Under the pieces are notes generated by a model. It had not been told where the DNA came from. It ran no database searches and was given only the letters and a program-made list of their open reading frames with translations. From the NCBI RefSeq assembly GCF_964194155.1, contig NC_135891.1:119350001-119414000 (forward strand): DNA of 64,000 nucleotides, written 5' to 3'. The translations under genes and the position numbers were made by a program. This document shows positions 1,143-59,865 of this stretch, piece after piece. This DNA is from Cetorhinus maximus. Lineage: Eukaryota. Each line of letters begins with the position of its first letter. The stretch's first letter is position 1.

Positions 1143-19615
<18,473 letters not shown>

Positions 19616-19777
19616 CCTGGCGGCGGCCGAGAGGCGGCTCCGGTCCCGGGGCTGGAGCTCGGGCTGTTCCGGCTCTGGCTGCAGCCGCTGTTGTTTGGAT
19701 AGAGACTCTGACTGAGCGGAGGCAAAGGTCGCCAATCAAACACATCGAGAGAGGGAAAGAGAGAGAAGCATAGCAAC

Positions 19778-21092
19778 CAGGAACACCCCCTCCCGGGAAC
19801 ACCCCCTCCCAGGAACACAGCACCCGCCCCATCCCGGGAACACCCCCTCCCGGGAACACCCCCTCCCAGGAACACCCCCTCCCGGGAACACCCCCTCCCG
19901 GGAACACAGCACCCGCCCCCTCCCGGGAACACCCCCTCCCGGGAACACAGCACCCGCCCCCTCCCGGGAACACAGCACCCGCCCCATCCCGGGAACACAG
20001 CACCCACCCCCTCCCGGGAACACCCCCTCCCGGGAACACCCCCTCCCGGGAACACAGCACCCGCCCCCTCCCGGGAACACAGCGCCCACCCCCTCCCGGG
20101 AACACAGCACCCACCCCCTCCCGGGAACACAGCACCCACCCCCTCCCGGGAACACAGCACCCACCCCCTCCCGGGAACACAGCACCCGCCCCCTCCCGGG
20201 AACACAGCACCCGCCCCCTCCCGGGAACACAGCACCCGCCCCATCCCGGGAACACAGCACCCGCCCCCTCCCGGGAACACAGCACCCGCCCCCTCCCGGG
20301 AACACAGCACCCGCCCCCTCCCGGGAACACAGCACCCGCCCCCTCCCGGGAACACAGCACCCGCCCCCTCCCGGGAACACAGCACCCACCCCCTCCCGGG
20401 AACACAGCACCCGCCCCATCCTGGGAACACAGCACCCACCCCCTCCCGGGAACACAGCACCCGCTCCCGGGAACACAGCACCCGCCTCTTCCCGGGAACA
20501 CAGTACCCACCCCCTCCCGGTAACACAGCACCCACCCCCTCCCGGGAACACAACACCCACCCCCTCCCGGGAACACAACACCCACCCGCTCCCGGGAACA
20601 CAGCACCCGCCTCTTCCCGGGAACGCAGCACCCACCCCCTCCCGAGGACACAGCACCCGCTCCCGGGAACACAGCACCCGCCTCTTCCCGGGAACACAGT
20701 ACCCACCCCCTCCCGGTAACACAGCACCCACCCCCTCCCGGGAACACAACACCCACCCCCTCCCGGGAACACAACACCCACCCGCTCCCGGGAACACAGC
20801 ACCCGCCTCTTCCCGGGAACACAGCACCCACCCGCTCCCGGGAACACAGCACCCACCCCTTCCCGGGAACGCAGCACCCACCCCCTCTCGAGGACACAGC
20901 ATGCACCCACTCCCAGGGACATAACACTCACTCACAGCACCTACTCCCTCCCCGGGGACACAGCACCCGCTCCTGGGGACACAGCACCCACCCACCCCTT
21001 CCCCGGGGACACAGCACCCACCCACCCCTTCCCCGGGGACACAGCACCCACCCACCCTTCCCTGGGGACACAGCACCCACCCACCCACCCAC
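19778..21092 (+). repeat. GC-rich 25-bp/15-bp VNTR immediately upstream of TM6SF2
   Basis: Units gggaacacagcacccgccccctccc and gggaacaccccctccc, with a ~200-bp higher-order duplication in the distal half. Confidence 0.93.
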
Positions 21093-21329
21093 TCACGATC
21101 CCGCACACACACACTTCCTCCCAAACCTGCAAAGGAACACAACCAAAATCCGCAGGAACACAAAATCCAACCACACCTCCACCAGGAACATAACACTCAA
21201 CCCCAGAAACAGCCAGCCCCTCACCCCTCCCACCCACCCTCAACTGCATCACATCCCCAATACCCAAAAAGAACATTTGATCCCCATGTGCATCAGGGCA
21301 CTGTTGAGTGTTGATGGGATTGTTCTATT

Positions 21330-23224: not shown

Positions 23225-23908
23225 TAAGCACAAACATGCAGCAGTTCCTACATTTTGCAAGAAAATATTTGAATGACATTCTTCTAGAGATTAAAAGGTT
23301 ACTGAGCGACTACCAGAGATGTCCAAAACGGTTGAGATTTCTCCTGCCGGATGTCAGGGCCTCAGTAACATATCCTCAGGTTTCTCTCCAAGTGTTTAAA
23401 ACAGCTACACAGGGAAGGCAAAGAATTCCTCTCCCTCAGCCACAGGCCCAAGACACACACAGCAGAGTGAGACACACTGCTGTCTCCTCTTGCACTGGAA
23501 TCTCCAGAGTGGCCATATGAGGAAGGAGGAGAGGGTTGGACTGTGCTCCCCAATCTACCAAGACTCTCCATTGTTATAATCTTTTCTGCTTACTGTCAGA
23601 TTCAGCAGGAATTGAACAAGACATTCAAAAAACTCTTCATTTTGGGATCTCCTTTTCTCTGCACGGTCCTCATCGCTGTGTGGTGAAGGAAAGGGCTCCT
23701 TTGAGTCCAGAAAGGTAATTGGGAGGAATGTGGCCCAATAGCAGTGGTACAGAAAGTTCCGGCATTGTTTTTCAGGGAAATCCAACTCGAGTTCATCCCT
23801 CGCAAGCACGGTCATCTGATCACTGCACCATTGAAGAACCAAACTAAACATCACAGCCAAGGATTGAATGGTAAAGTCTCCTTGTATCTGTGTGTGCAGG
23901 TGTAGGAG

Positions 23909-23935
23909 TCAGTAATAAGGCCTCCTCGGGTTGTT
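23909..23935 (-). CDS. SUGP1: SUGP1 exon 14 (last coding exon)
   Basis: tttcag|AAC AAC CCG AGG AGG CCT TAT TAC TGA = NNPRRPYY*. Confidence 0.93.
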   Translation of the reverse strand, partial: NNPRRPYY

Positions 23936-26900
23936 CTGAAACAAAGGAAGGTCCAGTGTTACTTCATACAAGGAATGTCAGGCAGCAAAAAGAACAAATG
24001 GCCCAGTAAACCTGGCTGACACACCAGGATGGTTGGAGCATGACCAGCTCTGCCTATCCCTCCACATCACATTCCCTCTAGAGTCATATAATCTCCTAGG
24101 AAAAGGCAAAATAAACGGGAGAAAAACCCAGAGATAATAAGGGGAAATAATAATCTGGAAAATGTTCAAGTCAGCAGCTTCATGGGAAACTCTCAAACCT
24201 TAGACAAGTACAGCCACTATAACAGAGCAAGGCAGGACAGAGCATTCCGCTTGATTGCCCTGTGGACTCGATATCCTCCATCACCCTTGCACAGTGGCTA
24301 GAGTCTGAACAAACTGTGGGATTCACTGCAGCAACTCGCCACAGTCACTGCAACAGTACTGCTTCCCGTGCCCTCCCACTGAGGATAAGGGCAGCAATGC
24401 AGTAGGAGCACCATCACCTCCCAGTCTCTCTCAGAATCAAAGAATAATATAGGACAAGGAGGCCAATTGTCCCAATGTCTTATCCAATTAGGAACATAGG
24501 AACAGGAGGCCAATCAGTCCCTCAAGTCTCTGCTATCATTCAATCAGGCCATTCAGCCCCTCAAGTCTGTTACATCAACCAAAAGGAAAGCAGCATCTTT
24601 TATTTTCAAATTTAAGATTCCAAATCCAGAGATCATGGTCTTTACAGAGAGTAGGTGGTTCTCAGGTGATCTGAATAAATTCATAAAATTGGAACGTTGA
24701 ATTCAGTGCGCCCAGCATTGACAGTGGCGAGAGTTCTTGGCCCTTCCTCCGCCTCATGTGCATGTTGTGATCACCTACCAGCGGGTTGGGCCTGAACCTG
24801 TAGGCCAGCATCATCCGCTTGCGGAATGCCTCATACTCGTCATCGTCTTTATTCAGCTCTGCTGGTCGATCGATACCAAACCCGGCTCCGTCAACTGCCG
24901 TGGTGCCTCTGCAGGCAAAAAAAAGAGAGGGAAGTGGAGAGGCTAGAGAAGCTGGCATTTATCTCCTTAAAGCAGAGATAGGTAGAAAGATTTAAAATCA
25001 AAATTACTGGGGGTTTTGAGAGAGTAAATGTGGAGAGGCAGTTTCCAGTCATAAGAAGGTTGGAAAGGGGAGAGGAGAAGAATTTTTTTTTTTTTGCATG
25101 AGCTGTTCCATTCTGGAATTAGATTGCGATTAAAAAGCATTGGATTCCGGAGGATTGACATGTGTGAGGGAGATTCCCTCCAGCTAACCCTGCAAGGAAT
25201 AACTTTGGCTGTGTTGAGAATATAACTCAGGCAGTGGCCTGATGCTGCTCGATTTCCTGCTCGAGTCTGTTGGCCATCTCGTTGTTCACACTAGCTTCAG
25301 ATGGGCATCCGAATTGGAAAATTAAAATGAGGATGGGGGATTAAAATCAGCCTCTTTGCGGGATTGGGTGGTTAAAATAACCACTCACATCCCTCCCCTT
25401 TAAACATACATTACTGGCACTTCTAAAACATGTACAACGATACTGAGGAATGCTGGTTGCAGAATGGTGTGCAGACATCTAAAAGCTCCCTCCCTTTCCC
25501 CCAGTTTAGGCAACAGAATATGGGATTATTTCATATATCAGAGCCTAGTTGGCCTACTACTATTTCAGTACCTGGGAACGGGAGCTTTGATGCCTTGTCC
25601 CTCTGAGCCCAATCCATCGCCCTCCTTCCAGCCCATTTTCATCAGCATCTGGTAACCAATGTTCTCCACAGTAATTTTGAAATCCTTGTAGTCGGAGTAA
25701 TCAGGCTCTCTCCCTTCCTGTGAAAGACAGACAAGAAAGTGTTGAAGTATTCAGACGCACGGAATAATGGCAGGGGAAGTGTGTGTGCACGCACTTCACC
25801 CCTGCGCTCACTAACCTACATCGGCACCTGGTTCAGCAACCCCTCGCTTTTAAAATTCTTATCCTAGATTTTCAAAACTCTCCACTGCCTCCCCCATTAC
25901 TATCTCTGTAATCTTCAGCCCAACAACCTTCCCAAGGTCTCTGCGCTCCTTCAATTCATATGCAATGATTTTCTTCACTCCACAACTGGCAGCAATGTGC
26001 CTTTATAAATTTTTTCTGTAGTGGGTGACTATTTGTTTACATGCATCGGCCCTTGAATTTTTATGCTCAGCCACATGTGCAGTCACTTAGAGAGGCCAAA
26101 TTGTGCGCAGCCTACGTGGGGACCTTTGGGTTGCTACACGATCATGCAGCGTGGAGGAAACATTGATTGGCAGCCAATCCTCAACAATCTAGTCCCGAAC
26201 CACTGGAATTCCCTCCATTAGCTTGTCAATCTCCCTCTCTTCTTTCCTCCAAGATATTCTTCAACATTAAAATCTTTGACCAAGCTTTCAGTTCAACTGT
26301 CCTATTTTCGCCTTAGGTGGATCATCATCAGCTATTATCTGATGATGCATCTTGGGATGTTTTTATTATGTTAAAGGCACTACATAAATGCAAGTCCATA
26401 CATTAGTGGTATGTTACATGGAATATCATAGGTGTACAGCCTGTACCTTTCTGATGTGCACTAGCTACAATCAAGGTACTGTTAGCTGTGCAGGGCCTTG
26501 CAAAAGTCACTTTTTTACTACATGCGCAAGTCCAATCCATATCAACATACTTCATCAATAGAAAAGCCTGGCTCCCCGATTAAGGCTAGCTTGAATGAAC
26601 TGAAATGGAATTGGAAAAACACAAGCGATGAACCTTTCCCCTGTCTACTGACTGTGGAGTATAGCATGAAATGAGTTGGGCAAGTCTCAATCCAGTTCCT
26701 ATTAGATATAAGCACACAGCATAGAACAGCTCCTAATATGGCCCTAAATCTCACTGTCAGAACACCAAGGCGGCTGGTGTGGAAAAGAAAATGTCACACC
26801 AATGCAGTGGGGCCCTCTTTGGAATTTGACCTGAAGCACATTTGTTGGGTCAATGTAGAGGGGGCTTTAATCTGTATCTAGCCCCATGCTGTACCTGCCC

Positions 26901-29900
26901 TGGTAAAGATAGGAAAGAGTTATTCAAAGTAGCAATAGCCATTTTCCACTTAGTATTATTTCTGGATAAGCTAACGTACCTTTAGAGCTTTGAACGTCTC
27001 CATGAATTTGTCCAGTTCATCAGGGGGTAGGAAGTCTCCAATGAAGTGCTTCCCGCGACCCATCTCGGTCAGTTGTTCTGCCCATTCTATCAAGAACAGA
27101 ACAAACCATGATGCAATATAGGCAACTAGCTGTGTGAAACACTACTAATGCTGTGCTCTTCCAAAGGCCAGATGACTTCAAGAAGTAGAAATGGGGATAG
27201 GCCAATCGGCCCCTCGAGCCTGCTCTACTATTCAATAAGATCATGGCTGATCTTCTACCCTAACTCCACCTTCCCTGACACTATATCCCTTGATAGTATC
27301 CAAAAACCTATCTCTGCCTTGAATATACTCAACAACTGAGCATCCACAGCCCTCCAGTATAGAGAATTCCAAAGATAGTGAAAAAATTTCTCATCTTAGT
27401 CCTAAATATGGCTGACCCCCATTATGAGACAGTGATCCCTCTTTCTAGACTCACCAGATAGGGGAAACAGACTCTCAGCATGTACTGTGTCAATCCCCTT
27501 AAGACAACAGAGAACATGACCAGAGGTTTTCAAACAAGGAAGAACATATAGGAATAAGAACATAAGAAATAGGAACAGGAGTGGACCATTTGGCCCTTCG
27601 AGCCTGCTTCGCCATTCACTAAGACCATGGCTGAGCTTCTTGTGTTTCGATTTCCACGTTCCCATCTACCCCGATAACCTTTTGATTCCCTTGCCTAACA
27701 AGAATCTACCTACGTCTGCCTTAAAAATATTCAATGACCCTGCTTCCACCACCGTCTGAGGCAGAGAATTCCAAAGTCGCACAACCCTCAGAAAATTTCT
27801 CCTCATCTCTGTTCTAAAAGGGCGACTCCTAATTTTAAAACAGTGCCCCCTAGTTCTGGACTCACCCACAAGAGGAAACATCCTTTCTACGTCCACCTTG
27901 TCAAGGCCATTCAGGATCTTATATACTTAAATCAGATCATCCCTCACTCTTCTAAACTCCAGTGGAAACAAGCCCAGCCTGTCCAGCCTTTCCTCATAAG
28001 ACAACCCACTCATTCCACGTATCAATCTAGTAAACCTCCTTTGAACCGCCTCCAATGCATTTACATCCTTCCTTAAATAAGGGGACCAAAACTGTACACA
28101 GTATTCGAGGTGCAGTCTCACCAATGCCCTGTATAGCCGAAGCATAACATCCTTACTTTTATGTTCAATCCCTCGCTTAATAAAGGATAGCATTCCATTA
28201 GCCTTCTTAATTACTTATTGTACCTGCATACTAACTTTTTGTGACTCATGTACTAGAACACCTAGATCTCTCTGCATCTCAGAATTATGCAGCTGTTCTC
28301 CATTTAAGAAATACTCTGCTTTTTTTGAATTCAATCCCAATTCGGTCTGTAACCGTTTTCCCCGATGTAGTATTGTCAGAGCCCTTGAAGGCAATTACAC
28401 TAAGTAGAAAGGAAGAGAAAACCTGCACTGATGACCCCAGGATGTCCCAAAGTGCTTCACAGCCAATGAAGTATGTTTGAAGCGTTGTCTTTTGGATAAG
28501 CTCAGATCACCAGAAGACTCAGCACATCTAGGCATCACCCGTGGTGATGCCACCCCGCTGGTTAAATCCTTTACAATCTGCTTAAACCTGAACCACTGCA
28601 GACTGCCATGTCCCTATGTTTATCTCTGACCTCTATAGACTGTTGTGATCTCATGTTTACCTCTGGTCTTCTCCATCTCCATATGCCGCAGACGATGTTC
28701 CCAGGTGCCAGCATCACCGTCGATTTCCTCGTCGCTGTCATACTCGTGTCTGTGATCTTGAATGGCTTTCTCCCACATCATCTGCATCTCCTGCATGGCT
28801 TGCTTGTGCTTCATGATCATGTCGTACATTTGCTGCATCTGTAAACCACCCAGAATTCACTTCAGCCATCCTGCCAAATGTCCACAGGTTGCTTCAGTTC
28901 CCTCATGTACAACCTGTCCAATATTTCTCTCCTTAAATGGTAATCTCTTTCCCTATCGCCCTGCCTGGTTCCTCTGTTAGTGCCCCTGTATAGCTCTCCC
29001 ATGCTCTCTGTAAACACCCCTACCTAATTCCTCTCCAGCTCTCTCTAACTCTGCTGGGCTGCTTCCCTATTCTGGTGATATTGCTGCACAATCCCTCTGC
29101 CTCTCTCTGTAAGTGACCCTGCCTGGTTTCTGCCCCTTTGTAAATAACACTGCCTGGTTCTCCTCTCTCTCCCTCCGTAGCTACCATTTTTCAGTGTCAG
29201 TTTCTCTCTTTCTCTGTGTCTCCCCTTCCCCATCAGCATCTGTGCCTGTCTCCTTTCTTTAGGTGATTATCACTAATATCTGTGTCCTGTATTTCTCTCT
29301 GTTGGCCTAGTGATCCTCTCTTTCTCTGGAAATGCAACCGTACACCCTCTCCTCTCTCCAAGCATCGCAGCCCACAATCCCCAGTGCAGTTCATTTCTCT
29401 AATCTTACATTAAATCAGTAGCTTCTCAAGGACAATTAGGGGATGGACAATAAATGCCGATCTTGCCAGTGACACTCATGATCCATAACTGAATTTTTAA
29501 AAAAGCTTTACTTTTAGGTCAGTTTTGGAGAGGTTGCCACGAAACGGGCGCATTTTGAAAAGCAGAAGAGGCTTCATTTCTTCAAAGCGCTAATCAGGAA
29601 GGAGTGAGCAAAGTGAGGAAAGTCAGCAACCTAGTACCAGAGTGTTTAATCAAAGGTGACTGCCTTCAGCTGACAACGCTGTAGGTCAGAATCAAAACAG
29701 GACAGAGTAATAGTGCCTAGAAACAGGCAGCCTCCAACCCCTGCTGCTGCCGCAGAAATGGTGGTGTCCTGCATGACTGCAGGGCTGCGCTCCCCTTGGC
29801 CACACCCTGCCATTAAAGATCATCTCACTGGAATTTACCTCCTGCTGTTCCTTCAACTGTTTCTTCTGTGCATCACTGAGCTCGTTGACTCCCACCAATC

Positions 29901-32900
29901 CGACCGGCTTACCTTTCTGATAGCCAAGCCCCTTCAAATCCTGAGCTGCAATCACACACACATACACACAAGAGGCATTACTTCAGCATGAGTTAATAGT
30001 TTGGCACTTAAAACAAAATTCTGGAGCCCACGTATCCCTTCACAATGGTTCGACATGACTCTGGGCCTCCACTCCCCCAGCATATAGCCCAGGCTGGAAT
30101 TTCCCATCACTTCCCTCTCCCTACAGAAAAGGAAGACAACGGGAATGTTGCTCAGAAGCAAGGCAATCGCAGCTTTCACACAGTGTCTGAAAGAACTGCA
30201 GAATCATACAGCACGGATAGAAGCCAATTCAGCCCTTTGTGTCTGTGCCAGCTCTTTAAAGGGTTAATTTCCCTCTTCCTGCTCTTTGCCCATAGCCCTG
30301 CAAATTTTTCCCTTTCAAATATTCACTGCAGTTTTCTGGTGTCTTTGCTTCCACACTTTGCTGTGTGAGAAGCATTGAGCATGAACCCAGGAACTTGCAA
30401 TCGACAGCTCACTGTGTGGAGCATTATTTGGGTGAGGTCAATCCCCCAGTGTTGCTCAGTGTTCAAAGTACCGCTAACTTTGAGCCCCGCTTCGGACCAT
30501 GTCCTCTGATGCAAAGGTTAGTGACACTCCAATTTAACCATCAATCATACAGTGATAATCCACTAATACAGAGTGCAAGAAAATGTACTCGGTACAAACC
30601 GATTGGCATAGGGAAATTGGGGTGCCAGGGTTCAGGAAGACACATGTTCAGGCTCCAACAACTGTAGCTTTAAAAAGGATGAAGGCCCTGCAATCGGAGG
30701 AGCATAGCTACCGATCAGCACAGAAGGCCACGTTCCTTTTGTACCTGAGCACCAATGTAGAGCTGACAGGGATTGTATCCCCACTACAAGAGTCAAAGAA
30801 TTTTTAACAATAGGAAAAGACCATTTGGTGCAACAAGCCCATCCCTTTCCTCACACAATGACTCCACCTATCCACTTTCTCCCCATATCTCTCAAACCAA
30901 CCTTCTTTCTCTAGAAACGTATCCACTTTCCCCTTGCACCCGTTTATACTATCCACCCTCCTTGGCACTACTGCGCCACTCTAGGTTGCACCTCAGCCTG
31001 GTCTTACCCCTGACTTTGTGCCATGGGACTGACGAGACCATTTCCTTCTTCACAGAACTTACTTGTTAAGCCAGGCACTTGCATCGATAATGCCAATTCA
31101 GGAGGAGGAAGCTCAATCTTGTCATCCTCTGGGCCCCATCGGCTCTTCTTTTTCTTTTTAAGCGAAGAGGAGGAGGAGGAAGATGAAGGTGCTGGTACGG
31201 GTGCAGGCTCGGAGGGTGAGCCACCGGAAACAGGCTCAGGAGAACTCTTCCGCTTTTGAGTGGCGGGAGAGGATATTGCCATCAAGCTGGCTTGGACGGC
31301 CTTCTGCGCAATGGTCTTGACTTTACAGAAGACTTCAACTGTGTCCCTGTAGTATCGATATGCATCGGTATTCTGCTCATACAGAAACCTACAGTGACAA
31401 AAAGAGTGTCTGGTGCTTCAGTGCTAGAGAACTGCATGCTCAGAATCACAAAGATTAACATTACAGAAGGAAAAAGGTCACTCAGCCCATCTGCTACTAC
31501 CTGTTCTCTGACGGAGTTATCCATCGAGACCCCTGTCCTCTTCCACATCCTTTAAAATTCCTCTTTTCCAAAAATTTCTCTACATCCTTTTGAAGGCGGC
31601 TCTTCGGCCCATCGTTCCTGTGTGGAAAGCTATTAGATTCTACTTCCACCACTACTGCTGATGGGGCCTCTCATATCCCAACAACCCTCTGCGCAAAAGA
31701 AAAATAATTCTCCTAAAGTCTCTGCTATCCTTGGGTGACAATATAGACTACACACCCTCTGATTTACTAACCGGTGGAAATAGTTTGGCATTTTATCTTA
31801 TCAAAACCACTCATACTTTGAGCGCCTCTATCAAGTCTCTGTTCCATGGGGCAGAATTTTATGACAGCAGGATTTTACGTTCCCGCTGTCGCCAATGGGA
31901 TTTATAACGGCCCGCCGCATTTTACAGCCCCGTCCCCGCCGAAACGGGTCGTATAATTCTGCCCATAGTCTCTCACCATAACTAAATATCTCCCCTTTGG
32001 CACCCTAAAAAAACTCAACACCCTCACCTTCACATCATTCCTAAAGTAAGGCTCCGAGACTGGCCAGAACAACAGCTTGCACTTATATAGCATCTTTGAT
32101 ATAGTAAAGCATTCCAATGAGCTTTCCAGGAATGACTATCAAACAAATTTGATATAGAGCACAAAAGGAGATATTAGAACAGGTACCCAAAGTTTGGTTA
32201 ATGAGATAGGATTTAAGGCGCATCTTGAAGGAGAGAGGTGGAGAGGTTTTGGGGGTGGTTGGGGGGGTTTAGCAGGGGATGGAATTCCAAAGCTTAGGGC
32301 TCAGCAGCTGACAGCACGGCCACCAATGGTGGAGTGATTAAAATCAGAAATGCTCAGGACATACTTAAGGGCAACAATTGGTGGCAGGGCCTTCCCACGA
32401 CGGACTTAATCAAGGCAGAGGTGGGAAGGTGGCATGATTTCCCCCCAACCCCTTACCAAGCTTCCCACAGCAGGGGCAAGGGCATTAAATTCTGCCCCAG
32501 GTGTCTTAAAGACTCATCCACAGAAAAAGTGATGAATCTATCCTTAAACTGTCTGGTCATTTATCCCAATCCTGTTTGTGGGACCTTGCCATGCACAAAT
32601 TGGCTGACACCTTTCTTACATCGAGTGAAATGGGCCTATATTCTGTGGAGTTTAGAAAAATTAGAAATCTCATTGATACCTAAGAATTAAATCTCATTGG
32701 TATATATAAAATTCTTAAGGAGCTTGACAGGGTAGATGCTGAGAAGCTGTTTTCCCCTGGCTGGACAACCTAGAACTATGGGGGTCATAGTCTCAGAATA
32801 AGGGGTCGGAAACTTAGGACCAAGAGGAGGAAACATCTTCACTTGGAGGGTCATGTATCTTTGGAATGCTCTATCCCAATGATGATGCTCTATGGATGCT

Positions 32901-35900
32901 CTGTGAATGAGTACATTCAAGACTGAGATTGATAACTTTTTCGGAAATAAGGGAACCAAGGGATATGGGATAGGGCAGGAAAGTGGAATTGAGGTAGAAG
33001 ATCAGCCATGATATTGAATGATGCAACATACTGAAGGTGACAAATGGCCTACCTAGCTCTTATTTTTTAAGTCTCTTATGTTCTAATTCCAACAGTGGCT
33101 ACAATTCAGAAGTACTTCATTGGCTGTGAAGTATTTTGGGATGCTCCAAAGGCATGAGGGGTGCTATTTAATTACAAGCTTATCTTTTCTTAAACAGCTA
33201 CAAGCCTTACAAACCAGGCAGCATGATAAAATGGTGCTTACCAGAAGGCTGGATTGTCTCGATTGTCCCGAACAGCCATCTCTTCCACGTCTGGACCCCC
33301 GTCAGCGACAAACTTCGCCAGCTTCTCAATCACACTTCGGATCTCCGGGTCCTCTGGGGGTGAAACTTTAAGCAGGCTATCAGTACTTGAGTTCAACTCA
33401 CACACCCAACAGTCAACAGCCAAACAAGGTCTACAAGATTGGATGGGTAAGAGTAGGATACAGGGAGAGCAATGGTTAAATCACACTCAAGTGGTTTAAT
33501 GGAGACAGTGTCCCACACAACTGCACTTAGCTCTCAAACCTCTGGGTGTTAACTGGTTGTTCTTTAGAGTGTTCCAAAAAATTTACGTCACTGAGACAGT
33601 GTAGAGGGAGCTTTGCTCTGTATCTAACCCCGTGCTGTATCTGTCCTGGGAGTGTTTGATGGAAACAGTGTAGTGAGAGCTGTACTCTGCATCTAACCCA
33701 ATGCTGTACCTGCCCTGGGAGTGTTTGAAGAGGACAGTGTAGTGGGAGCTTTACTCTGTATCTAACCCCATGCTGTACCTGTCCACTCTATCTAAGACTA
33801 CATATTAATTCCTCCCCTCCAATACTAATTTTTCCCTCCAACAAAACAATGCGAGGGGCAAGAGTCACTAATAAATCCAGTAAGGAATTCAGCAGAAATC
33901 TCTTTACCAAGAGAGTGAAATTTGCTACCTCAAGAAGTGGTCGAGGCAAATAGCATAGGTGCATTTAAGGGGAAAATAGGAAACTCCTTGTGGGAGAAGG
34001 GATTAGGATATGCTGACATGGTGAGGTGAAGAGGAATGAGAGAAGGGTGAGGAGCATAAACACTTGCACAGACCTCTTGGGCTTACTGGCTTATTTTCAT
34101 TCACAAATTCTAAAACAGGAGAAAATAGTAAAAAGGAGAGTACTAAGAAGAATTCGCAACCTCCTCCCATCGATGGACCATCTGTCCTGCGTCCCTTCCA
34201 TTCTCCACCCATGACCCCCACAAACTCTAAACTGTGAATCACTGTTAGTGTCACATCTTCAAACCTCATTAGCCTGTAGCTGAAAGCTAATCAGATCACT
34301 TATTAGCAAACTGGAAAAAACTTTTGTTTAATTTGTAATTACAAATGCAATCAGGTCAAAATAAAGAACTACTGTCTTAACCAGTGACACTGATCACCAG
34401 TAAGTCAACTGGTTTTCTCTTTTTGTGGACAAACGTGATTTGTGTTCCCTTAATTTAGATAGTTGAGAGGGTGATCTATTTGAGGTTTTCAAAATAATAA
34501 AGGGATTTGAGACGATAGATGTAGATAAACCATTTCCCATGGTGGGGGATTCCAGAACAAGGGGGCATAGTCTTAAAATTGGAGCTCAGCATTTCAGAAG
34601 TGAAATCAGGAAGCATTTTTTCACACAGAGAAATCTAGGACTGTCACCGCTAAAAGGTTGAGAGTCAGCTGAAATAGGAGACTGAGATGAGTAGATTTTT
34701 GTTGGGTCAGTGGTATCAATGGATATGAATTAAAGGTGGGTAAATGGAGTTAAGATGTAGATCAGCAATGATCTAATTGAATGAAGTAACAGGCTCAAGG
34801 GGCTGAATGGACTCCTGTTCCAATTAAAAGTGGGATTTCTCTGGCTGTATCTTGGTACCAACAGGTCAGAAACCTTAGTGAAAAAACTAAGAAAGAGTAG
34901 CGTCTTTGAAGGTGACAGGACAAGAAAGCTGTACAAAAAACATATGAGATCATTGCTTTTATAAATAGATGCACAGAGAATTGATGGACCTTCTGTGTTG
35001 TGCTAGTCTTTGACTCTACAGAACAGAAAAGCAAGGAAGTTATGTTAAGCTTTTGTAATAACGGGTTATGCCTCAAATGGAAGATTGTATCCAATCCTGG
35101 GCACCACACTCTAGTCAAGGCCTTGGAGAGGGTGCAGAGAAGATCTACTAGAATGTTTCCAGAGATGAGTGACTTCAGTTAAGTAGAGGGGCTGGAGGAG
35201 CTGGAGTTTTTCTCTAGAGAAAGTTAAGAGGAGATTTACTAGAGATGTTCAAAATTATGAGGGGTTTTGATCAGAATGAACAGGAGAAACTGTTTTCATT
35301 GGCAGAAGCCAGAGCACCGTAGATTCATGATTAACGGAAGAACCAGAGGTAACATGAGGAAACTTTTTAAAATGCTGTTATGATCTGGAACACAGCCTGT
35401 AAGGGTGTTGGAAGTAGATTCAATGACATCCAAAATAGATTTGGATAAATACTTGCAGGGAAATATTTACAGTGCTATGAGGAAAGAGCAGAGAGAGTGG
35501 GATTAATTGGATAGCTCTTTCAAAGGGTTAACACAGAGATGACGGGCTGAATAGCCCCCTTCTGTACAATTAAATGTTTCCAGCAAAGATTAAAGGCAAA
35601 AAGATGCACTGAACTGATTTTGCCAACATGGTTTCCCCTGTTCCAGAGGGAAGTTAATGCAACTATTAAAGTAACAAACTTGGCTTCAGTGCACAAATAA
35701 AGAGGCACAGTGTATGCATGTTCGTGGGGGAGGGGGTGTGGTTAGAGTTTCATATGGGAGGGGCTATGAGTTTGCATGCATGGGGGCGGGTGTGGATATA
35801 CTCTTTCATAGTTCAATAAACGTAAAAATTTATGCAGGATTACACCGTTCTGAAATCAACATCAGCCCTCCAGACAGAGATAGAACATGGATGCTCTACA

Positions 35901-38900
35901 GAGCTCCAACATTACCCTGAGAATGGTCTTCCACTGTGGATTCAATCTCAGAAGACATGCGTTGGTCAGTGTGCATACTGCAACTAGCTGAGGCAAAGGC
36001 TTTTTTTTAAAAAAAACAACCATCATCCAATTAAGAAAAAAAACTACTAGCTGTATTGGCTGAATTTCAATCCATTTCTGAGAGGTGAAAGGTCAATAGA
36101 ACAACCCGCTTTGGAATGCTCGGCATCATCACTGCCCTCTGAACTTTGTGCAGTTTTAAACCTTTATGCATGGGATAAGTCTTAGACAGAGATTGTCCCC
36201 TTCCGATTCCCCTACCTTTTGGCACTGATGAAGTGGTGGTGGAGGTTGGCACAGGTGGCCTGGACACCGACACCCCAGACAGTTTTTCTCGTTTGATTTC
36301 AGCCACCTTTTTCTTGTAATAAAGAAAAGCTCGGCTATTGCGATCATACAAAAACCTGCAACAAAGGTGGAAATTACGTTTAGCACCTTTCTCTTGACAA
36401 AGAAATCCCAGCTTGTGATCCCCGCAGCGTTATATAGAACGCATACTGCAAGCTTCTTACAGAGGATTTATCCACCCACATTCTTATATGCCCCATGGCC
36501 ATCAGACCAGATAAATCAGCTCCATCAGTCTGCATTTCCCTGACTGTACTACCATCAAGCAGCTCTGGAGAGCATTCAAGGGACCGGATCAGTAAACACT
36601 GGAACCGACACCAAGAGGAGCTGTAAGTACTGGCATCGATGCAGATCCTGCTCCTGTTTTATTTGAGCTGCATTATTGGCTGATGGAGGAGAGAGACGAT
36701 ACTCACGAGAAGGCGGGGTTATCCCTGTTGTTCTGAATGGCGAGCTTTTCGACTTCATGGCCCCCATCTGCTACGTACTTCGCCAACTTCTCAGCGACGC
36801 TCCGAACCTCCGGCTCCTCTGGGGGTGAAACTTTAAGCAGGCTATCAGTACTTGAGTTCAACTCACACACCCAACAGTCAACAGCAAACAAGGTCTACAA
36901 GCATGGTTGGGGGCAAGAGCAGGATACAGGAAAAGGACGGATTTAATGAAATATGAAGCCAATATTGAGAACATTTACAATGTAAAACACTCCATGCTGG
37001 CACTGAATTTGTTAATTAGAGGAGAAGATAAAGTATTCTCCTCCAACCCTTCCAATACACACAAAGGATTGCTTCCCCAATGGCTTAGCGTAGATAAAGT
37101 CAATGCTTGTTCCGTAGTAGGAACATGCAGATTCGAGCTTTCAGGTTCGATTTGCAGGCTATGTGGTTAGCTGCTCTTAACCAGGGTAGCTGAGGTGGTA
37201 GAAATGGCCTCAGAACGTCTAGGCTGGGAAAAAGAAATGTTTCCTCTCTTGATCGCTAATGGCAACCAATGTAGGGAAGAGTAAACGTGCAAAACAAGGA
37301 GAGGATCACGCTCGTCTGTGATGCTCCTAATGGCTCAATGCCTTGCAGGTACTCTATCCAGCACATACATGTCACATGACTGAGATATCAGGGAATGTCT
37401 GTGGGACTGAGCCCTCAGCAAGAGTCAGGAACATCAGGAAAGTGGGCATGAAGGCAAAAGCGGAGAAACATAATGAAACCTACTTGCTCCTAATTTTTGG
37501 GGAATGTTTTGCCAGCACATAGAGGTAGTTGTCTCCTTTCACTACAGAGCTGTTCCTTTGCTATTAGCTCCACTGGCAATTTGCTGGAGAAGTGTACTTT
37601 CCTGACCTAGCCATTGATCAGGGGCATCCAACCCAAAAAAATTCTACATTGGATTTCCATTGGCACAAAACCCATACTGAAACTTTCCCAACTTCCCTTT
37701 GGCACTACATTTATATAGCATCTTTTACGACTTCAGGATATCCCAAAATACTTCCAGGCCAACTGAAGAATTCTGAAGTGTAGCAACTGTGTAATGTAGG
37801 AAATGTGGTAGCCAATTTGGACACAGCAAGCTCCCACAAACAGCAATACAAGGGTGGGATCAGCTGTTTTACTGATGTTGATTGAGGCACGAAAGTTCCA
37901 GGACACTGAGGAGAACTCCTCTCCTCTTCTATGAATAGGTAAATTCTAACCTGTAGGAAGGATTCTTAGTCTTAATCCTTTCTTTCTGAACCTGCGGGAA
38001 TTTGCCATATATGGTCCCTGTAGGGGAGTCCATGTTTAATAATTAGTTTTAGTTTAGCTATGTGCGATTGATTTCCATGATAAAGTGTATTAATCAATTA
38101 ACTCAAAATGCAAGGCACTAGTATCACACTACATGAACCTATCTTTAGGTGCATCCGTCCTTAACAAGTGAAATGTGCCATATAGGCTTAGGCCAAAGTA
38201 AGGTTGCGTCTTATGGTTTTATTACAGGACAAGTGTTGGAGAAAACCCACTAGTACATTTTATGGCTTGATTACAGGGCAAATGTGACGTCACTTGTAGT
38301 CCAATTGTCAAAGCAAAGGCTCTGGGAAGTGGTTAACACTTATGCTGTATTCTTCTCAAAAGCCTATTGTGTGAAGTAAAACAGTTTTAGGTCTCAAGCT
38401 ACAGTTCTAAATTAAATCATTTTAGCTTTCTAACTTAAAGTGCCTTAAAGAGAAACAGTCACTTTCCTTCAAAGTATACAAAGACCTATGCCTTACTGTG
38501 GCTTTAAATGTACTGTAGTAATTTTGTAATTGCTGTATTAGTTTAAGATTGTGTACCTCTTGGACTCTAGTTTTTTTTTATAAGTAACTTGCTTCAGGCA
38601 TCAGCAGTCAATAGGAAGTCACATATAGGAGTCTGAACTTTCCAGAACACCCAAGATGTATCAATTAGGCATTTTAGGGCAATAAGCCTGAAGCATCAAT
38701 CATTAGGAAGTGACACCCTTGTAAATAAGCAGACATACAAATGACCTTGTGGTGCCTCGTTATCTTAATGGAAAGCTATAAACTTAATAAAATAACAGGG
38801 AAAATCTGCAATGAGCAGGATGCTCAGTGACCATCACCCTTAAGAGGTCAATCAGGCACTAATTAGACATCACCTAACCAATAAGGCACTGATCATGCGT

Positions 38901-41900
38901 TGCTTGGATATTGAGAACTCAGAGATACTACTGACCATGCATAGAGGTAGTGAATTAGCAAGAGTTAATAAACAGCAATTTTCAGCAGCTAAGTGCACAG
39001 CAAAAGGAAGAGGAGATAGAAGTTAGACTTCGGTCAACAGAACATTTCAAGACACAATGCTACAGTGGGCCGGAAGTCATGAGCCAGTGTTCCAGAGCAC
39101 ACTGACTGTTCCACTGCCTTTGCTAAGTATTGCATTTTGTACTTACTTCAATTAACTTAATAAATTCTGTGAAATTTGTGACAACATACTCATACACAGA
39201 GTGGTCTGTAGTTAGTCGGAGCTGCAGGTTTCTTTTAGATCAGCTCTCCCAACTCATTTTAACAATTGTAATCAAGGCGTTGTCGAAGCTTTTGTCTTGC
39301 ACTCATCAGGACAATTCGCAGGAATACCAAATGTAAAAGGAACAACAATTTATACTTCATGAGAAGAGAGTGCCAATTGGTTGGCAAGTGGACTCTGATT
39401 GGTAGAGGTGTTGCTGCGGAGAATGCACCAGTTAACTGATGACTGACAGTTAACTGTCAAGCTTTGTTTCAATTCAAACCAGGCAGGTTGACTCTGATTG
39501 GTCAAGGCATTGCCCTGGGGAATGAACCACAGAATGGCTGTCGCCAATTTTGTTAAGTTGAAACAGGCGCAATGTGTGCACGTTCATTTTGTCTGCAAAG
39601 AACAGGGTCCTGTGTATTAATATATGTTCTTCTAGCACTCCTAAGTGTATCACACTTCAAGCCCGACTGATAATCTTAAATTGGTTGTCGTCAGCACACC
39701 AGAGCGAATCTGCCTGGTTTGAAATGAAACAAAGCTTGGCAGTTAACTGTCAGTCATCAGTTCACTGGTGCATTCTCCATGGTAACACCTCTATCAATCA
39801 GAGTCCACTTACCAACCAATCAGCACTCTCAAAGTATAAATTGTTGTTTCCTTTACATTGGGTATTCTTGCGAATTGTCCTGATGTATGCAAGAAAAGCT
39901 CCACATGTGTCTTTTTTCAGCAATACTCAAGTTCTGTACTACCAAATGACAATGTAATTAACTTTAATTGTAAAACTTAAAAGTTGGAATGAACCCCAGG
40001 TCTTACAAAGGTTATAGGTTTGAGCCCCACTCCAGAGACTCAAGCACATAATCAAACTGACATTTCCAGTGTCACACTGATGGAGTGCTGTACTAGTGGA
40101 GGCACCTGCTTCTTGATGAGACATTAAACTGAGGCTTTCTCTGTCCTCTCAGGTGGCGTAAAAGATCCAGAGAAGAGAACAGGAGCTCCCTTGATGACCT
40201 GGCCATTATTTATCACTCAACCAATACCCTAAAACAGATGATTGGTTACCACATTGCTGTTTGTGGGAATGTGGCATGCACAAATTAGCAGCCATGTTAT
40301 CTACATTATAACAGCGACTGTACTTAAAAAAGCCATTAGCTGTAAAGCACTTTGGAAGATAGTGAAAGACACTACATAAACGCAAATCCTTTCCATTTAC
40401 CGACGGCAGTTTTTGCATTCACTCAGGGGAATCTTGTCTGATTTTCTATAGAACATGGTTACTGGCACAGAAACAGCACCAATAACAAATAATCTAATCA
40501 CTGATTAGCTATAATAATAGCCTGCCCTTCCTCCCCAGCTCCCTCTTCTTCTGTAAGTTTTTCTTAGGCTATAATGGAACTGTAGTATGCAAGTCCCCAC
40601 TGTCTTTCCCAGGTGACTGATTTACAGCCAATGAAATCCTCTTGAAGTGCAGTTGGTATATTAATGTAGAAAATGCAGCAGCCAATTTGCATACGATAGG
40701 GTACCAATGTGGAAAAAACATAAGCAATGGAAAGTCTTTGGCACTCTCTTCCTCAAAAGGTGGTGGAAGCAGTCTTTGAATATTTTTGGGGCAGAGCTAG
40801 ACAGATTCTTGATTAACAAGGGGGTGGAAGATTATCGGAGATAGGCAAGAATGTGTGGCTGAGATTATATTCAGATCAGCCATAATCTTATTGAATGGTG
40901 GAGCAGCGTGGAGGGGCCGAGTGGCCTACTCCTGTTCCTAATTCGTATGTTCATAAAACAAGACTGGATAGCAATCAGGTAGGATCCCAGCTGATTCTTT
41001 TTTCTTCTACCGCAGGGAGCCAAGGGACTGGATTCCAGGGCGAGACAGCACCTTCAGACGAAATGGGGGTAAAAGAAATACCCTCTCAGCAAACCTCTCA
41101 GTACAGCAGCAACGGCTAATCACGAAGGCACAGTATCACAGTTTAAGTAATGCTAGTTACCTTTCACTTCTGCCCACTGCTCAAGGTCCTCATCCTCCTC
41201 CTCTTCATCATCTGGTGACTGGAAGACACTGGGGCGGGCTGCGATTGGCGTCTGCTTGGCATGGGTGTAGTTCTTCATCTGACCTAACGTGCTTCCCAAA
41301 GATGCCACTCCCAGGCCAGGGCGTTTCCCGATCAGAATCTGCCTCTTCTGTGCCTGGGTCCCTGAGGGGCTGGAGTTACTGCTGTTGCTTGGTGGCACCC
41401 CTTCAGGGGGAAAAAATAAATCGACGATCAGTGCGTCGAACATTGCAATCAAAGGTGAACTTCCTTAAATCAAAAGCATAAATCAGGAAGTTACGCTGAA
41501 ATGCCAAACATAGGACCCACTGTACCCCTGTCCAAGTTAAGTATCAAAGTGATTAACTTATCAGAATTCCAGGATTAAAATTTTTGGGCCCCACCCACAT
41601 TCTGAAATGGTTGAATACATAGTTAATGGAACATGTTCTAATACTATAGGATATTACAATAACTAATGCATCCTTAATTGATCATCCGTGGCTTTTGACA
41701 CTGCCAGTAAGGAGCAAGTGCAGTTTTCACATTAAGCATAGAGGGTGCAGACAATTGGACCAGACACACAGGCCTTTCTGTCCTTATTTTCATATTTCCA
41801 TTAGAAATTTCTATATTCACATTTATAATCTAAGCTTATCAGATTCTAATTATACCCTTCTGCCAGCAGTAATACTGCAATGCTTCTATATAGGAACAGG

Positions 41901-44900
41901 ATGAGGCCATTCAACCCCTCAAGCCTTTCCCAACATTCGATTAGAACTACTTGGATCTACTTCCTAATCCGTCTATCTGCCTTTGTTCCATAAACCTCAA
42001 TAGCCTTGTCTAACAAAAAATAATCAATCTCAGTTTTGGAGGTCTTGTGGCTCAGTGGGTGGCAGCCTGTGAGCCAGAAGTTCCAGGTTCAAGTCCCAGT
42101 CCAAGACTTGTCGGCCATGGAAGGAGCGTTCATGACAGTTCAACAGGCTGATAATCAATCTGCTAATCCTTCCAACACTTCCCCATTATCCTCAAAGCGA
42201 CAGAAAGAGTGTGTAAAGATATGAAACAAACAATCTCAGTTTTTTAATTTTCAATTGAGCCCCCAGTCTCAACATCCTTTTGGGGAGGGGTTGTGTGGTA
42301 GAGTTCCAGATTTACATTACACTTTGTGTGACGGCGTCTTCTTGGCATCACCCTTGAGCATCCTGGCTCTAAGTTTAAGGTTATACCCCCTTATTCTGGA
42401 CTCCCACCCCCAGAGGAAATAATTTCTCTCTATCAACCATATCAACTCCTCCAATCATAAATACTTCAGTTAGATCACCCCTTAATCTTCTATCTGAAAG
42501 GGAATAAAAGGCAACTGGCAGAACATCATAATTACAAAGCATGGTATCATAGGCAGATTCAATTATATCTGGGGACATGGGAATTTTAATCTGAATACAA
42601 ACTGAAGACTTCTAATATATATATATATTTATATATGGGCTAAAAGGCCTACTCCTGTTCCTATGCTTTTACATTCCCAGCTTTCTGCCTAACTCACCTG
42701 ATGGCACTGAATCAGAGTGCAGCACAGTTTCTGAGAAATCTGCTGCCTTCCAGTATCTCATTCAAGTGGGCATTCATTGTATACGAGACCAGGTCAATGT
42801 ATGAAAAGACTTATTAACCACAAGTTTATAAGTAGGGCATGGGGTAAGAAACTGCAGTGGAGGCCAAACCTGCACATATATTCAGCAGACAGGAGCGGAA
42901 AAAGCCTGTTTGATCCTGATCAAGGGCATTGAGATGAACGGGAATACCCCAGCTACTGGTCCTCCTGAGATCTTCTCTGTACAGCTGACGTCTCTACAGC
43001 AAGTTAAGCCCATCTGGCCTCCACACACTCCTCACCTGTACTTGCTTTCTCCTTCTGCATCTTCAGGAACTGCTGCAGGAAACTCCCATCATTGGCAAAC
43101 TTGTTGGACGTGTTCCTTTGGTCGTTATCTCTATAGAATAATTAGAATGACGGTGAATTCCAGACAAACCAGCAAAAGCAAAGCCAGGCTGAATACCAGT
43201 CACAGAATTCAATAAGACAGCTCTGAAAATATACTTCACACACAACAAATAAAATGTCTGTTCAAAATCAATTCAACCTAACTAGAAAAATCATTAGGAA
43301 TTATGCCCATATTCCCAAATGGAGGATACAATGGGGTAACTGGCTTGTGCAGTGGGTTAAACACAGGCATTGGGTTCAAACTCAAGCTAGTCAATGAGCT
43401 GAACATCTTCTCCCCATGTACCTCAAGGGTTCTTTGTGCAATTAGTTTGGACAGCCTCAGCCTAGTTGTAGTGGAGAAGGGACAATAGAAACAAATAACA
43501 CACCTAATTCAACACTCAGGAGGCTGCCTGATAGGCAGTGTGGGACAGTAGAAAATTTTAAACTTGGTGCAGTGCGAAGCACTTGTGAAGCATGACTGAA
43601 GTGCATTAATGGGACTGTGTAGAGGGAGCTTTACTCTGTATCTAACGCACGCTGTACCTGATGTGGTATCAACTGATGCAGGCACTTGGAACCTGAAATG
43701 AAATCTGTTCCATCTGTACTACTAGCATTCCTCAGCTTAATAAGCTCAAGTTAAAATTGAAGTGAACGGCATACTTGTGAGAAGTAATAATCACCACATA
43801 CTGAGCAGGCGTCACTTGCAGCTTTGTGAAGCTGTCCTTTTTAGCTCTCTCCATTTTGGCTTCGATTTCCTTTTTCTTCTGTGCTATCAGCTCCTCTTGT
43901 TTCATTAGATTCACGTACAATTTATTGGGTCTGTTGGAGGAGCCCAGACGCTCCAGGCTGAAGGATCGCTCACTGCTGGACTTTGTGGCCCCACCAGCCT
44001 TACCTACAATATAAAAAAAATGAAAACACACAAATGGATCAATCCAAGAAACATTTATAAAAGGGAAATGGTAAAGCTAATCCTGCTTGTCAATTAGTTT
44101 TGTACAAAAAATTGTAAATGTATCGCGCATTGAAACAACTGGACACACAGAGTAGTGAAGGTGTAAAGGAACATTTTCTATAAGCATTTTAAAAGTTTCA
44201 ATGAGATCATCTCTCATTCCTTTAAATTCCAGTGATTACTGGACTTAATCTCTACTTTTGGGATAACCCTTTCATCCCAGAGATCAATCTGGTAAACCTT
44301 CATTGCTTCTCCCAACATGGCAAGTCCAGGGACTGTGGATGCTCAGTTAATCAGCATATTCAAGACAGATTGATAAGATTTTTGGGCACTAACAGAATCA
44401 AAGGGTTTGGGGATAGGGAAGGAAAAAGGAGCTGATATAGGAGATAAGCCCTGATCTCACTGAATGGCAGAGTAGGCTCAATGAGCTGTATGGCCTACTC
44501 CTGCTCCTATTTTTATTACTGACACTGGCGATGGTTTATTAAGCAACATTCAGGGTCACTTCATAGATGTGTCTATGTATCAGGTCAATCAGGGACTGTA
44601 AAGGGGGATAAGTTGAAGCAGAGGGCACATGCTTGCAACTGAAGCATTGCTCACCTCAGGAGCAAATGGTGGTTATTCACTTGGGGGGAGACACAGCTCT
44701 GGATGAATACAGGGGTTGGCTGAGGCTGTAGCAGGAATTGAATGAGATGGAGAGAGCGCATAATTAATCAATTTCTCACTCGAGAATGTGGTTTCAGCAC
44801 TCAATGGGCTAAATGCAATCCATCAACGGGTTTGCTGTCCAAATTGAATGTTGTGACCCTTTTATGTGGACAATGATACATCACAGTTTACCAGTGAACT

Positions 44901-54900: not shown

Positions 54901-57900
54901 AATGCTCAACTATGCACCCAGGCGATATCCCAGGGAATCTTATGAAGAAAATACACAATACGATGGCCTTCCCTATGGTGACTATGAATCTCCATCTCAC
55001 AGATCGGAGAGATGGAGGAATATATCCAGTCAGGCAGAAATGCCTTCCGAAGATAATAGAAGATATTACGATGATGCTTCCTATTCTGCTTCAGGAAGAG
55101 AGAATTACTTGGAGCACCATGAGAGAGATGATCACCATTCACAGTATAACGAATTAAGGAGCCCCATTGAACCCAGTGGGAATCCAGGGTTGTTTGGAAG
55201 ACAAGCAAATTCCAATGACAGTCCTACCAGGAGAGGATCCAGCATCTACAGAAGATCAGTGAGCCCTATTGAGTCTAGAGATCGGTCAGGATCATACAGA
55301 AGGCAAACAAGCCCAAATAATTGGCAGTCTCGGAGTCCAATTAATGACTCAAGAGATTATCAATTCTATAGGAGATCCCAAAGTCCCAATGGCAGAGATG
55401 GTCAAAGTTTATACAATAGATCCCAAAACCCTGTTGATAAAACAGGACACTCAGAATCTCACAGGAGATCCTGGAGCCCTGGTCATGAGTCCAGGGATCA
55501 AGGATCTAACCCTAGATCTAGGAGTCCTGTTAAGGCACCTGATGCAGAGTTATACAAGTTATTAAGTAATGTTATTGATAATGCTCGGCGTATGGCGGCT
55601 AGTAAGAATGATCCCTCTCACACATCCTGGAGAGACCCATCCAGGGACTGCTCTCAAATGGATTCTTCCATTTACCAGACCACTACACCTACAGATGGGT
55701 TCCATGTAGCAGAGGATTATAACCCTCGCTTGAACCAGCACAGTTCTATTCATAAAAACACAGAAGTTTCCAGAAGGGGTCATTCTTTTTCTAAAGTGCC
55801 TCCTAAAAATACAAGAGGGCCTTTGCTTAAGCGTCCAAAGGTTCAAGGGCGACAAGGCCTTCTAGGCAGAGCCCCTGGCCTTCTCGGGGCAGCCCCTGGC
55901 CTTCTCGGGACAGCCCCTGGCCTTCTCGGGACAGCCCCTGGCCTTCTCGGGACAGCCCCTGGTCTTCTAGGAACAGCCCCTGGTCTCCTAGGGACAGCCC
56001 CTGCTGGTTTAGTGGGGCCTTCTGTGTCCAGCATGCCAGTGACCACCTACAAAAATGTTTCCACAGACTCTTCTGCTCATTTGCATCCATTGGGGAATAT
56101 ATCTGCTCTAGGTAGTCAAATGGAACTGGGACAGCAAATAATAAAATGGGCTGGTTTTCATAGTGTTGCTGTTGACCGTTCCATAAATAAATTTGACCCC
56201 AACACAGATACCTATTCTAAGGTAGCAACGGCCTTCCAGTGCTTGATGGCAAAGCAACATCAGGATATCTGTGATTCAACATTAGTGGCACATTTAGGCC
56301 TCACGTACCCTGTGATAGATAACTCTTTTGTGTCTCTGTTGATAAGGAAGAAAGTCATTGCAAGTAGGTTAGAGTTGGATGATATTATGCAGAAAGAAGA
56401 ATCTCTTTTACAAGAGATACAGAGCAAGCTGCTGGAATGCATAGGTCCACTTCTTGTAGCAAGCAGTAACCATGAGTTAAGCTCTAAGCCGCAAAGCTCA
56501 CAGACCCCTGACAACGTTGCCAGTGAGCTAGAGCAGGCGATCATAGCTTGCCGCCAATCAATGGTGTTCATTGGGCAAATCTTTGCTTTTGTCAGCGAAG
56601 AAAGAAGGAAAAATCTGTTGGAGAAGACCGGGCTGATCTCAGTGGCTCCAAAGTACGATTATTTTATGAATCTGGAAAGCAATCAGCTGTTTGGGAACAA
56701 ATACACAAATGAGCTGAAGAACCGAGTGGAGCAAATCTACCTCCCCCCATTATATAGCCAGGTTTCTTGTTCCAGTAAGTTCATGACAAAAGCGGAGGAA
56801 CAATCAAAGAATGATGCAGCAATCAAGCCCTCAAAAAGTAAGTACTCAAATCAGTCTCTGAGTTTATAATGATGCATAGCTTGAATTAAATTTGAGATTA
56901 CATTATATTCTAGCTATTATTAAAAGTTTCTATTGGTGATATTTTGAATGTGCCATAATTGAAAGGTTAAATATGATTTTATTAAAATATATTGATGTCA
57001 ATGAATTGAAGTTTCATCCCTTCTTTGCCCAGTTGCTGGCCTGGCTGGGACCTAGTGCCTCCAGCAGTTGGCTACATTGACACTTTTTCAGTGGTCTGGG
57101 AGTGGGTCTCGCGCCTGCATTCTTGGTAGCAGAAGCCCGAATGCCTTGCCGAGGAGCAAGGTTGTTGTTTCAATTTAGCTCCAAACACAAGGAAAGTTGG
57201 AACATTTCCTTTCCAATTTCCACTGTCTTGGCTTTGCTGTTTTGAGATTCCAATGTAACCTCCCGTTAGCTCACCTCCTTCCACAGAGATGGCTTGAACT
57301 GTTGTGTTTTTTTAAGTTTCCTCTTTGGCAGATGCCAAAGCAAGCAAGCAGACTGAGAAAGGTTCTTTAGCACTCACTGATGACAGTGGCATGTGCATGG
57401 CAGAGAAAGATACACCATCAGCAGCTGGTGAGAGCATCCACCCCCCAGAAGACACACAGGTCAAGACCATTATTGATAAACTGGCTATGTTTGTAGCAGA
57501 GAAGGGCGAAGCAGCAGAGAAAGTAGTCGTCCAGTACAAGAAAGAGGACTCCAAATATCGGTAAGGACAACTACAGAACGTAAGACAAAAGCAAAATACC
57601 ACAGATGTTGGAAATCTGAAACAAAAACAAAAAATGCTGAAAATACTCAGCAGGCGAAACACCACATGTGGAGAGAAAAACAGAATTAACATTTCAGGTT
57701 GTGACCTTTCATCAGAACAGTTCTAATGTTAACTGTTAAAAGGGAGGTGGTGGCATAGTGGTGTTGTCACTGGACAAGTAATCCAGAGACCAAGGATAAT
57801 GCTCTGGCGACCTGGGTTCGAATCCCACCACGGCAGATGGTGAAATTTGAATTCAATAAAAATCTGGAATAGAAAGCCTGATGACCACAAAACCATTGCT

Positions 57901-59803: not shown

Positions 59804-59865
<62 letters not shown>

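Follow-up and report, generated by a model that had tools for sequence, protein, structure and literature searches.

Conserved, duplicated acceptor elements with a probable role in unproductive splicing at introns 4 and 6 of SUGP1 in Cetorhinus maximus

AS-NMD is well known in splicing-factor genes, for example at the poison exons of SR-protein and hnRNP genes, where highly conserved non-coding sequence surrounds the event that makes the premature termination codon (PTC). In SUGP1 the closest described event is a human 'cryptic' 3' site in intron 6 that inserts 58 nt and leads to a PTC; according to Xing et al. 2025 (PMC12434867), the product was stabilised by emetine, hence NMD-sensitive, and was induced by AQR knockdown but not by SF3B1 mutation. 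SUGP1 protein fell by 50–60% upon AQR knockdown. Table S7 of that paper contains two SUGP1 rows among the 2,407 cryptic 3' sites obtained, thus the response to AQR knockdown is not specific to this gene. One row is the 58-nt upstream acceptor, with a PSI rising from 0.017 to 0.158, and the other an acceptor 65 nt upstream, marked 'annotated', with a larger shift from 0.084 to 0.368. The coordinates put 501 nt between the 65-nt acceptor and the intron-6 donor downstream of it, leaving space for exons 5 and 6, and on this basis we assigned the acceptor to intron 4. On hg19 chr19 the junctions are 19413256/19413198–19414156 for the 58-nt event and 19414722/19414657–19416657 for the 65-nt event. 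A word search of the paper's main text found no 'intron 4', 'exon 5' or 'conserved', and the 65-nt event is undiscussed there. Among 15 supplementary files searched the human acceptor coordinates appeared in Table S7 alone, and they were absent from three supplementary files of PMC9894173 (two of the four coordinates converted with an assumed offset). The cryptic 3' sites of SF3B1 mutation or SUGP1 loss lie 10–30 nt upstream of the canonical site (PMC12434867). According to two preprints, DHX15 represses weak and alternative 3' sites in overlap with SUGP1 (Feng et al., bioRxiv 2022.11.14.516533), and SUGP1 is proposed as the trigger of discard at kinetic blocks (Beusch et al., bioRxiv 2022.11.13.516350). 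Our literature search, outside which lay most subscription papers and several relevant supplements, found no description of a conserved or duplicated acceptor element or of SUGP1 autoregulation. The poison acceptor of exon 7 was already known in human as missplicing; new here are its conservation, its twin and the joint response of the two.

The window analysed is the whole stretch of 64,000 nt from Cetorhinus maximus (contig NC_135891.1, positions 119,350,001 to 119,414,000), and all positions below refer to it. The gene on the minus strand is SUGP1, as the 40-aa translation of exon 36830–36707 matched shark and ray SUGP1 with identities of up to 100%, and coding exons 2–14 could be placed by tblastn and boundary fitting (Table 1). 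Joined through the coding acceptor at 33365, they gave a protein of 648 aa identical to the shark SUGP1 record P0028, so that the position proposed for this acceptor in an earlier note on this DNA, with its AAG ending at 33366, was correct. The SURP domains begin in exons 5 and 7, of 124 nt each (Pfam PF01805 on homologues); in a Pfam Surp search of the genome this split domain was not among the matches listed. The shorter shark SUGP1 isoforms differed at the N-terminus and not at the site studied here. Exons 5 and 6 (36216–36830, minus strand) total 264 nt and the acceptors of exons 5 and 7 are identical, so exon 4 could be spliced to exon 7 in frame; this joining would lose one SURP domain and was absent among the isoforms examined. 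On the opposite (plus) strand a second gene at about 57400–63290, presumably the paralogue SUGP2, has SURP-like exons matching 57412–57558, 60381–60536 and 63165–63284. Copies of a 69-bp-unit repeat were found at 33593–33784, 13089–13735 and 14100–14241, one array lying ~110 nt upstream of the intron-6 element, and two long tandem-repeat arrays at 18775–19397 and 19777–21094.

Table 1. Features of SUGP1 and of its two acceptor elements in the window
Feature	Position	Strand	Basis or remark
SUGP1 coding exons 2–14	23907..44003	-	tblastn, boundary fitting, translation
Exon 4, phase-1 donor at 41161	41161..41400	-	boundary fitting
Exon 5, 124 nt, first half of SURP domain 1	36707..36830	-	homologue match
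Exon 6, 140 nt, phase-1 donor at 36216	36216..36355	-	boundary fitting
Exon 7, 124 nt, first half of SURP domain 2	33242..33365	-	homologue match
Intron 6, pyrimidine tract and TAG of upstream (poison) acceptor	33431..33480	-	15/20 pyrimidines, preceding AG 55 nt upstream
Intron 6, predicted branch-like yTnAy in poison-acceptor tract	A at 33448 (-18), 33476 (-46)	-	motif only
65-nt conserved extension of exon 7 upon upstream acceptor use, first half UG-rich	33366..33430	-	
Premature TGA, poison frame, after about 285 codons	33393..33395	-	7 exon junctions upstream of end
GTGAGT donor-like site in extension, both copies	33396..33401	-	36 nt from coding acceptor; motif scan
Weak coding acceptor AAG, longest pyrimidine run 3, second AG 11 nt upstream	33366..33383	-	
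Third acceptor CAG, 12 nt inside exon 7, in frame, drops VSPP	33354..33356	-	first base 33353
Twin element, end of intron 4: upstream acceptor (first base 36894), 64-nt extension and stop, weak coding acceptor	36831..36934	-	

At the end of intron 6 we found, as the earlier note had proposed, a canonical acceptor that precedes the coding one of exon 7 by 65 nt; it ends in TAG with its AG at 33432–33431 and has 33430 as its first exonic base. Joining the phase-1 exon 6 (36216) to 33430 produced the expected premature TGA at 33395–33393. This stop sits in the extended exon 7 of 14, well ahead of the last exon junction, as AS-NMD requires. The stop alone is unremarkable, as six of the eight AGs scanned around the exon 7 acceptor yield one. 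The internal GTGAGT begins 29 nt into the extension, and a 29-nt microexon from 33430 to this site was considered and set aside: it also ends in a stop, thus the outcome would be unchanged.

The coding acceptor of exon 7 had 10 of 20 pyrimidines in our motif counts, and the AG 11 nt upstream of it represents the shortest such spacing among the 13 coding acceptors. Those of exons 9 and 10 are equally pyrimidine-poor by this way of counting, but end in CAG. A branch candidate, CTGAT with its A at 33380 (-15 from the coding AG), was predicted in both copies by motif scan. The TTAAC put forward earlier as the branch candidate at intron 6 had no counterpart in the intron-4 copy by the same scan. 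The third acceptor (33353) had been overlooked earlier; with it, each copy, at intron 4 and at intron 6, has three acceptors (upstream poison, coding and downstream CAG, the last with 36818 as its first base in the intron-4 copy). Lying 12 nt above the CAG at 33354 and with a longest pyrimidine run of 3, the exon 7 coding acceptor fits the layout of SF3B1-mutant-type sites. VSPP stood at the start of exon 7 in 160 of 164 parsable proteins, and K[VI][SL]PP at exon 5 in 162 of the same 164 (drawn from 179 proteins of >300 aa, mostly birds, out of 120 of 541 matches plus cluster members), and judged from these protein letters the weak coding acceptor is the one that annotated proteins keep. VSPP was missing at the exon 7 start from the gene models P0011, P0060 and P0063. 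It was also missing from P0017, a frog record, where an altered element or a different choice of AG in the model may be the cause.

In the twin that closes intron 4 the upstream acceptor, again a TAG, is offset by 64 nt; 14 of its 20 tract positions are pyrimidines, and the AG-free zone extends over 95 nt (55 nt for intron 6). The poison reading of this copy is D-L-V-C-C followed by a stop (about four codons), so the earlier statement that the 1-nt indel between the copies (offsets 65 and 64) still gives a PTC was right; both poison frames stop. The two extensions were identical at 64 of 65 aligned bases, whereas in the same-residue codons of exons 5 and 7 just 11 of 25 third positions agreed (Fisher p 6e-9). 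Directly upstream of the extensions the copies agreed at 31 of 42 positions, farther out at 49 of 104 and on the donor side at 31 of 66, against a background of 0.445 ± 0.032 between unrelated introns. Thus the identity of the twins exceeds chance and drops to background beyond the upstream flank. A DNA search of the genome returned these two copies of the element only, and the acceptor of the SURP-like exon at about 63161 (plus strand) is ordinary. An upstream YAG with pyrimidines at 14 or more of 20 positions and no AG for 30 nt or more, situated 20–120 nt above the coding acceptor, precedes three of the 13 exons, namely 5, 7 and 13. An intronic structured RNA (snoRNA or similar) was rejected, with 0 Rfam matches in the window and folding z values of 0.29 and 0.08. 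Both copies have a GTATCCT, resembling the core of a U12-type donor, in the upstream pyrimidine tract (33455–33461 and 36921–36927, minus strand). In the U11-binding enhancers of SNRNP48 and RNPC3, U12-type donor motifs stand in tandem on the downstream side of the acceptor that they activate; here just one GTATCCT is present per copy, upstream of the acceptor (-31 and -33), and an enhancer of this type was rejected.

The shark peptides of exons 5 and 7 were alike at 30.6 of 40 positions, compared with 22.2 of 40 in bony vertebrates, an unusual likeness which means that gene conversion may inflate the identity of the twins. The exon 5 peptide of cartilaginous fish was also nearer to exon 7 of bony vertebrates (27.0 of 40) than to their exon 5 (22.9 of 40). 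An old gene conversion between the SUGP1 repeats in cartilaginous fish is possible, on a weak signal from these 40 protein columns.

Comparison with other vertebrates was made through protein letters for the intron-4 copy, the intron-6 copy being tied to human by its offset only. In 13 of the 14 members of a bird-type cluster resembling chicken SUGP1, the reading runs through the last part of intron 4. P0185, the one member compared in full, matched the shark intron-4 reading at 13 of 16 residues, and its Arg 21 codons above the junction corresponds to the position of the shark intron-6 acceptor AG; this position, as far as protein letters can place it, fits an offset of 65 nt. Together with the 64 of 65 bases shared by the shark copies, the 13 of 16 residues indicate non-coding sequence conserved past neutral expectation, as is characteristic of AS-NMD. 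The offsets, 64 and 65 in shark and 65 and 58 in human (the human copies differing by 7 nt), include no multiple of 3. The shark model P0030 was rejected as proof of poison-acceptor use, since the sole solution entering the element depends on a weak donor together with a microexon of 3 nt.

The choice between a poison and a productive acceptor proposed in the earlier note thus held up: human cells use both the 58-nt site (intron 6) and the 65-nt site (intron 4 by its coordinates), and use of both rises on AQR knockdown. The conservation of the twins and the shift of both under one perturbation speak against noise: these are sites of unproductive splicing, present in two copies and conserved. 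We consider it highly probable that they form an unproductive-splicing valve, and since human cells use matching sites the valve is likely to be ancient.

For the working of the valve we lean towards the following account. The coding acceptor, an AAG with no tract of its own, a predicted branch at -15 and a canonical-looking AG 12 nt downstream, would assemble or activate slowly; stalled complexes would be discarded by DHX15 with SUGP1 as its activator, and the intron would then be spliced at the upstream site, diverting SUGP1 mRNA to decay. Such a discard at a weak site implies that SUGP1 would throttle, and thereby limit, its own mRNA. The element would have been copied along with the duplication of the SURP exon pair, so that each transcript passes it twice, with intron 4 as the larger valve of the two. 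Under this discard model, blocking activation, for instance through loss of AQR, would shift both valves towards poison, as was observed. Against the account stands a baseline use of the human intron-6 site of just 1.7%.

If the two choices are independent, the productive share is the product p4 × p6. The further claim that output scales with about the square of weak-site use did not find support, as a square requires equal sites and human use differs five-fold (8.4% versus 1.7%). In series, a second site at most adds its log-gain to that of the first and creates no cooperativity. The logit shifts upon AQR knockdown were similar (1.85 and 2.4). In a toy calculation with independent choices and an assumed NMD factor, intron 6 alone left 0.86 of the productive share, reaching 0.41 only with a ten-fold NMD depletion, and both sites left 0.59 without NMD correction and 0.41 with a two-fold depletion. 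The latter value is near the reported loss of protein, thus two sites fit more easily than one.

That SUGP1 feeds back on itself through both copies, with SUGP1–DHX15 discard rejecting SUGP1's own poor acceptor twice per transcript, is a tentative proposal which we regard as doubtful. If true, SUGP1 would be under a kinetic-proofreading thermostat conserved between sharks and humans, which would also lower SUGP1 whenever activation of the spliceosome stalls; this would account for the resemblance of AQR loss to the SF3B1 mutations of cancers. Upon AQR knockdown, poison use was up though SUGP1 was down, so any loop fails to compensate there. In Zhang et al. 2023 (PMC10760632), endogenous SUGP1 was essentially unchanged when splicing-interfering SUGP1 mutants were expressed, and a proofreading role for SUGP1 was rejected, as it was in a review (PMC11874996).

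These observations bear on whether SUGP1 is the operator of the valve. The valve could be real with the choice set by the AQR intron-binding complex, by UG-binding proteins on the extension or by U1 snRNP, whose binding at the internal GTGAGT would promote use of the upstream acceptor and sterically hamper the coding one. We judge this unlikely, even though AQR loss is the only proven input to both events and SF3B1 mutation did not induce the intron-6 event (PMC12434867), endogenous SUGP1 did not respond to the interfering mutants (PMC10760632), and both copies carry a UG run and GTGAGT. The anatomy of the coding acceptor resembles that of sites reportedly repressed by SUGP1–DHX15. The SF3B1 result does not discriminate, as feedback predicts a fall of poison use on SUGP1 loss which would be hardly visible from 1.7%.

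A different reading, which we find improbable, is that the conserved bases enforce the weak coding AG, and with it VSPP, over the AG 12 nt downstream, with the upstream acceptor as a by-product of broken splicing and the identity of the shark copies due to gene conversion. It draws on VSPP or its variant being kept in nearly all of the proteins parsed (160 and 162 of 164), on the low baseline use of the intron-6 site and on a tree of 40 columns, lacking starred support, in which chondrichthyan exon 5 groups with exon 7 of bony vertebrates. However, conservation reaches up to and past the upstream AG and then ends, all four known offsets break the frame, and the human intron-4 site is annotated, with 8% steady-state use (Table S7 of PMC12434867). 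Moreover, the synonymous sites of the adjacent exons are far diverged, so any conversion tract would have to stop at the element.

In five of the 14 bird-type ORFs the reading continued from the intron-4 element through spliced downstream exons, and P0185 and P0191 start above the inferred acceptor, which suggests, at the level of ORFs, RNA retaining intron 4. Retention or detention of the intron at a difficult 3' end as the main regulated product, with the upstream acceptor as a minor exit, is nevertheless very improbable, as these ORFs come from assembled contigs rather than single molecules and may be processing intermediates, and upstream-site use was measured at junction level in human cells (PMC12434867).

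The unproductive-splicing valve matters because the level of SUGP1 decides whether the SF3B1-mutant splicing pattern of many cancers is present. If the human 'cryptic' site belongs to a conserved pair of valves, SUGP1 might be raised by a block of the upstream acceptors, a candidate approach for which intron 4, not intron 6, would be the larger target. The element also offers a ready-made reporter for the dispute over whether SUGP1–DHX15 discards slow spliceosomes or takes part in an early branch-site hand-over, and would serve as a clean example of splice regulation copied along with a protein domain, both copies being kept.

Compared with known systems, the shark element shares with the human intron-6 site the gene, the intron, the upstream acceptor, the frameshift and the premature stop, NMD being shown in human; it differs in offset (65 nt versus 58 nt), and in PMC12434867 the human site is treated as missplicing with its twin merely a table row. 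Like the SF3B1-mutant cryptic sites, the SUGP1 coding acceptor has no tract of its own and is followed 12 nt downstream by a CAG of canonical appearance, but here the acceptor is the normal, productive site. The skipping of SUGP1 exon 8 that Kim et al. in 2016 reportedly linked to rs10401969, and which is said to affect the SUGP1 level, concerns another intron and a human variant and is separate from the twin element; common to both is a splicing change affecting the level of SUGP1. The shark gene resembles the poison-exon genes for SR proteins and hnRNPs in that it encodes a splicing factor and that highly conserved non-coding sequence flanks the event producing the PTC, although this event is an alternative 3' site rather than a cassette exon and is present twice in series, once per SURP repeat.
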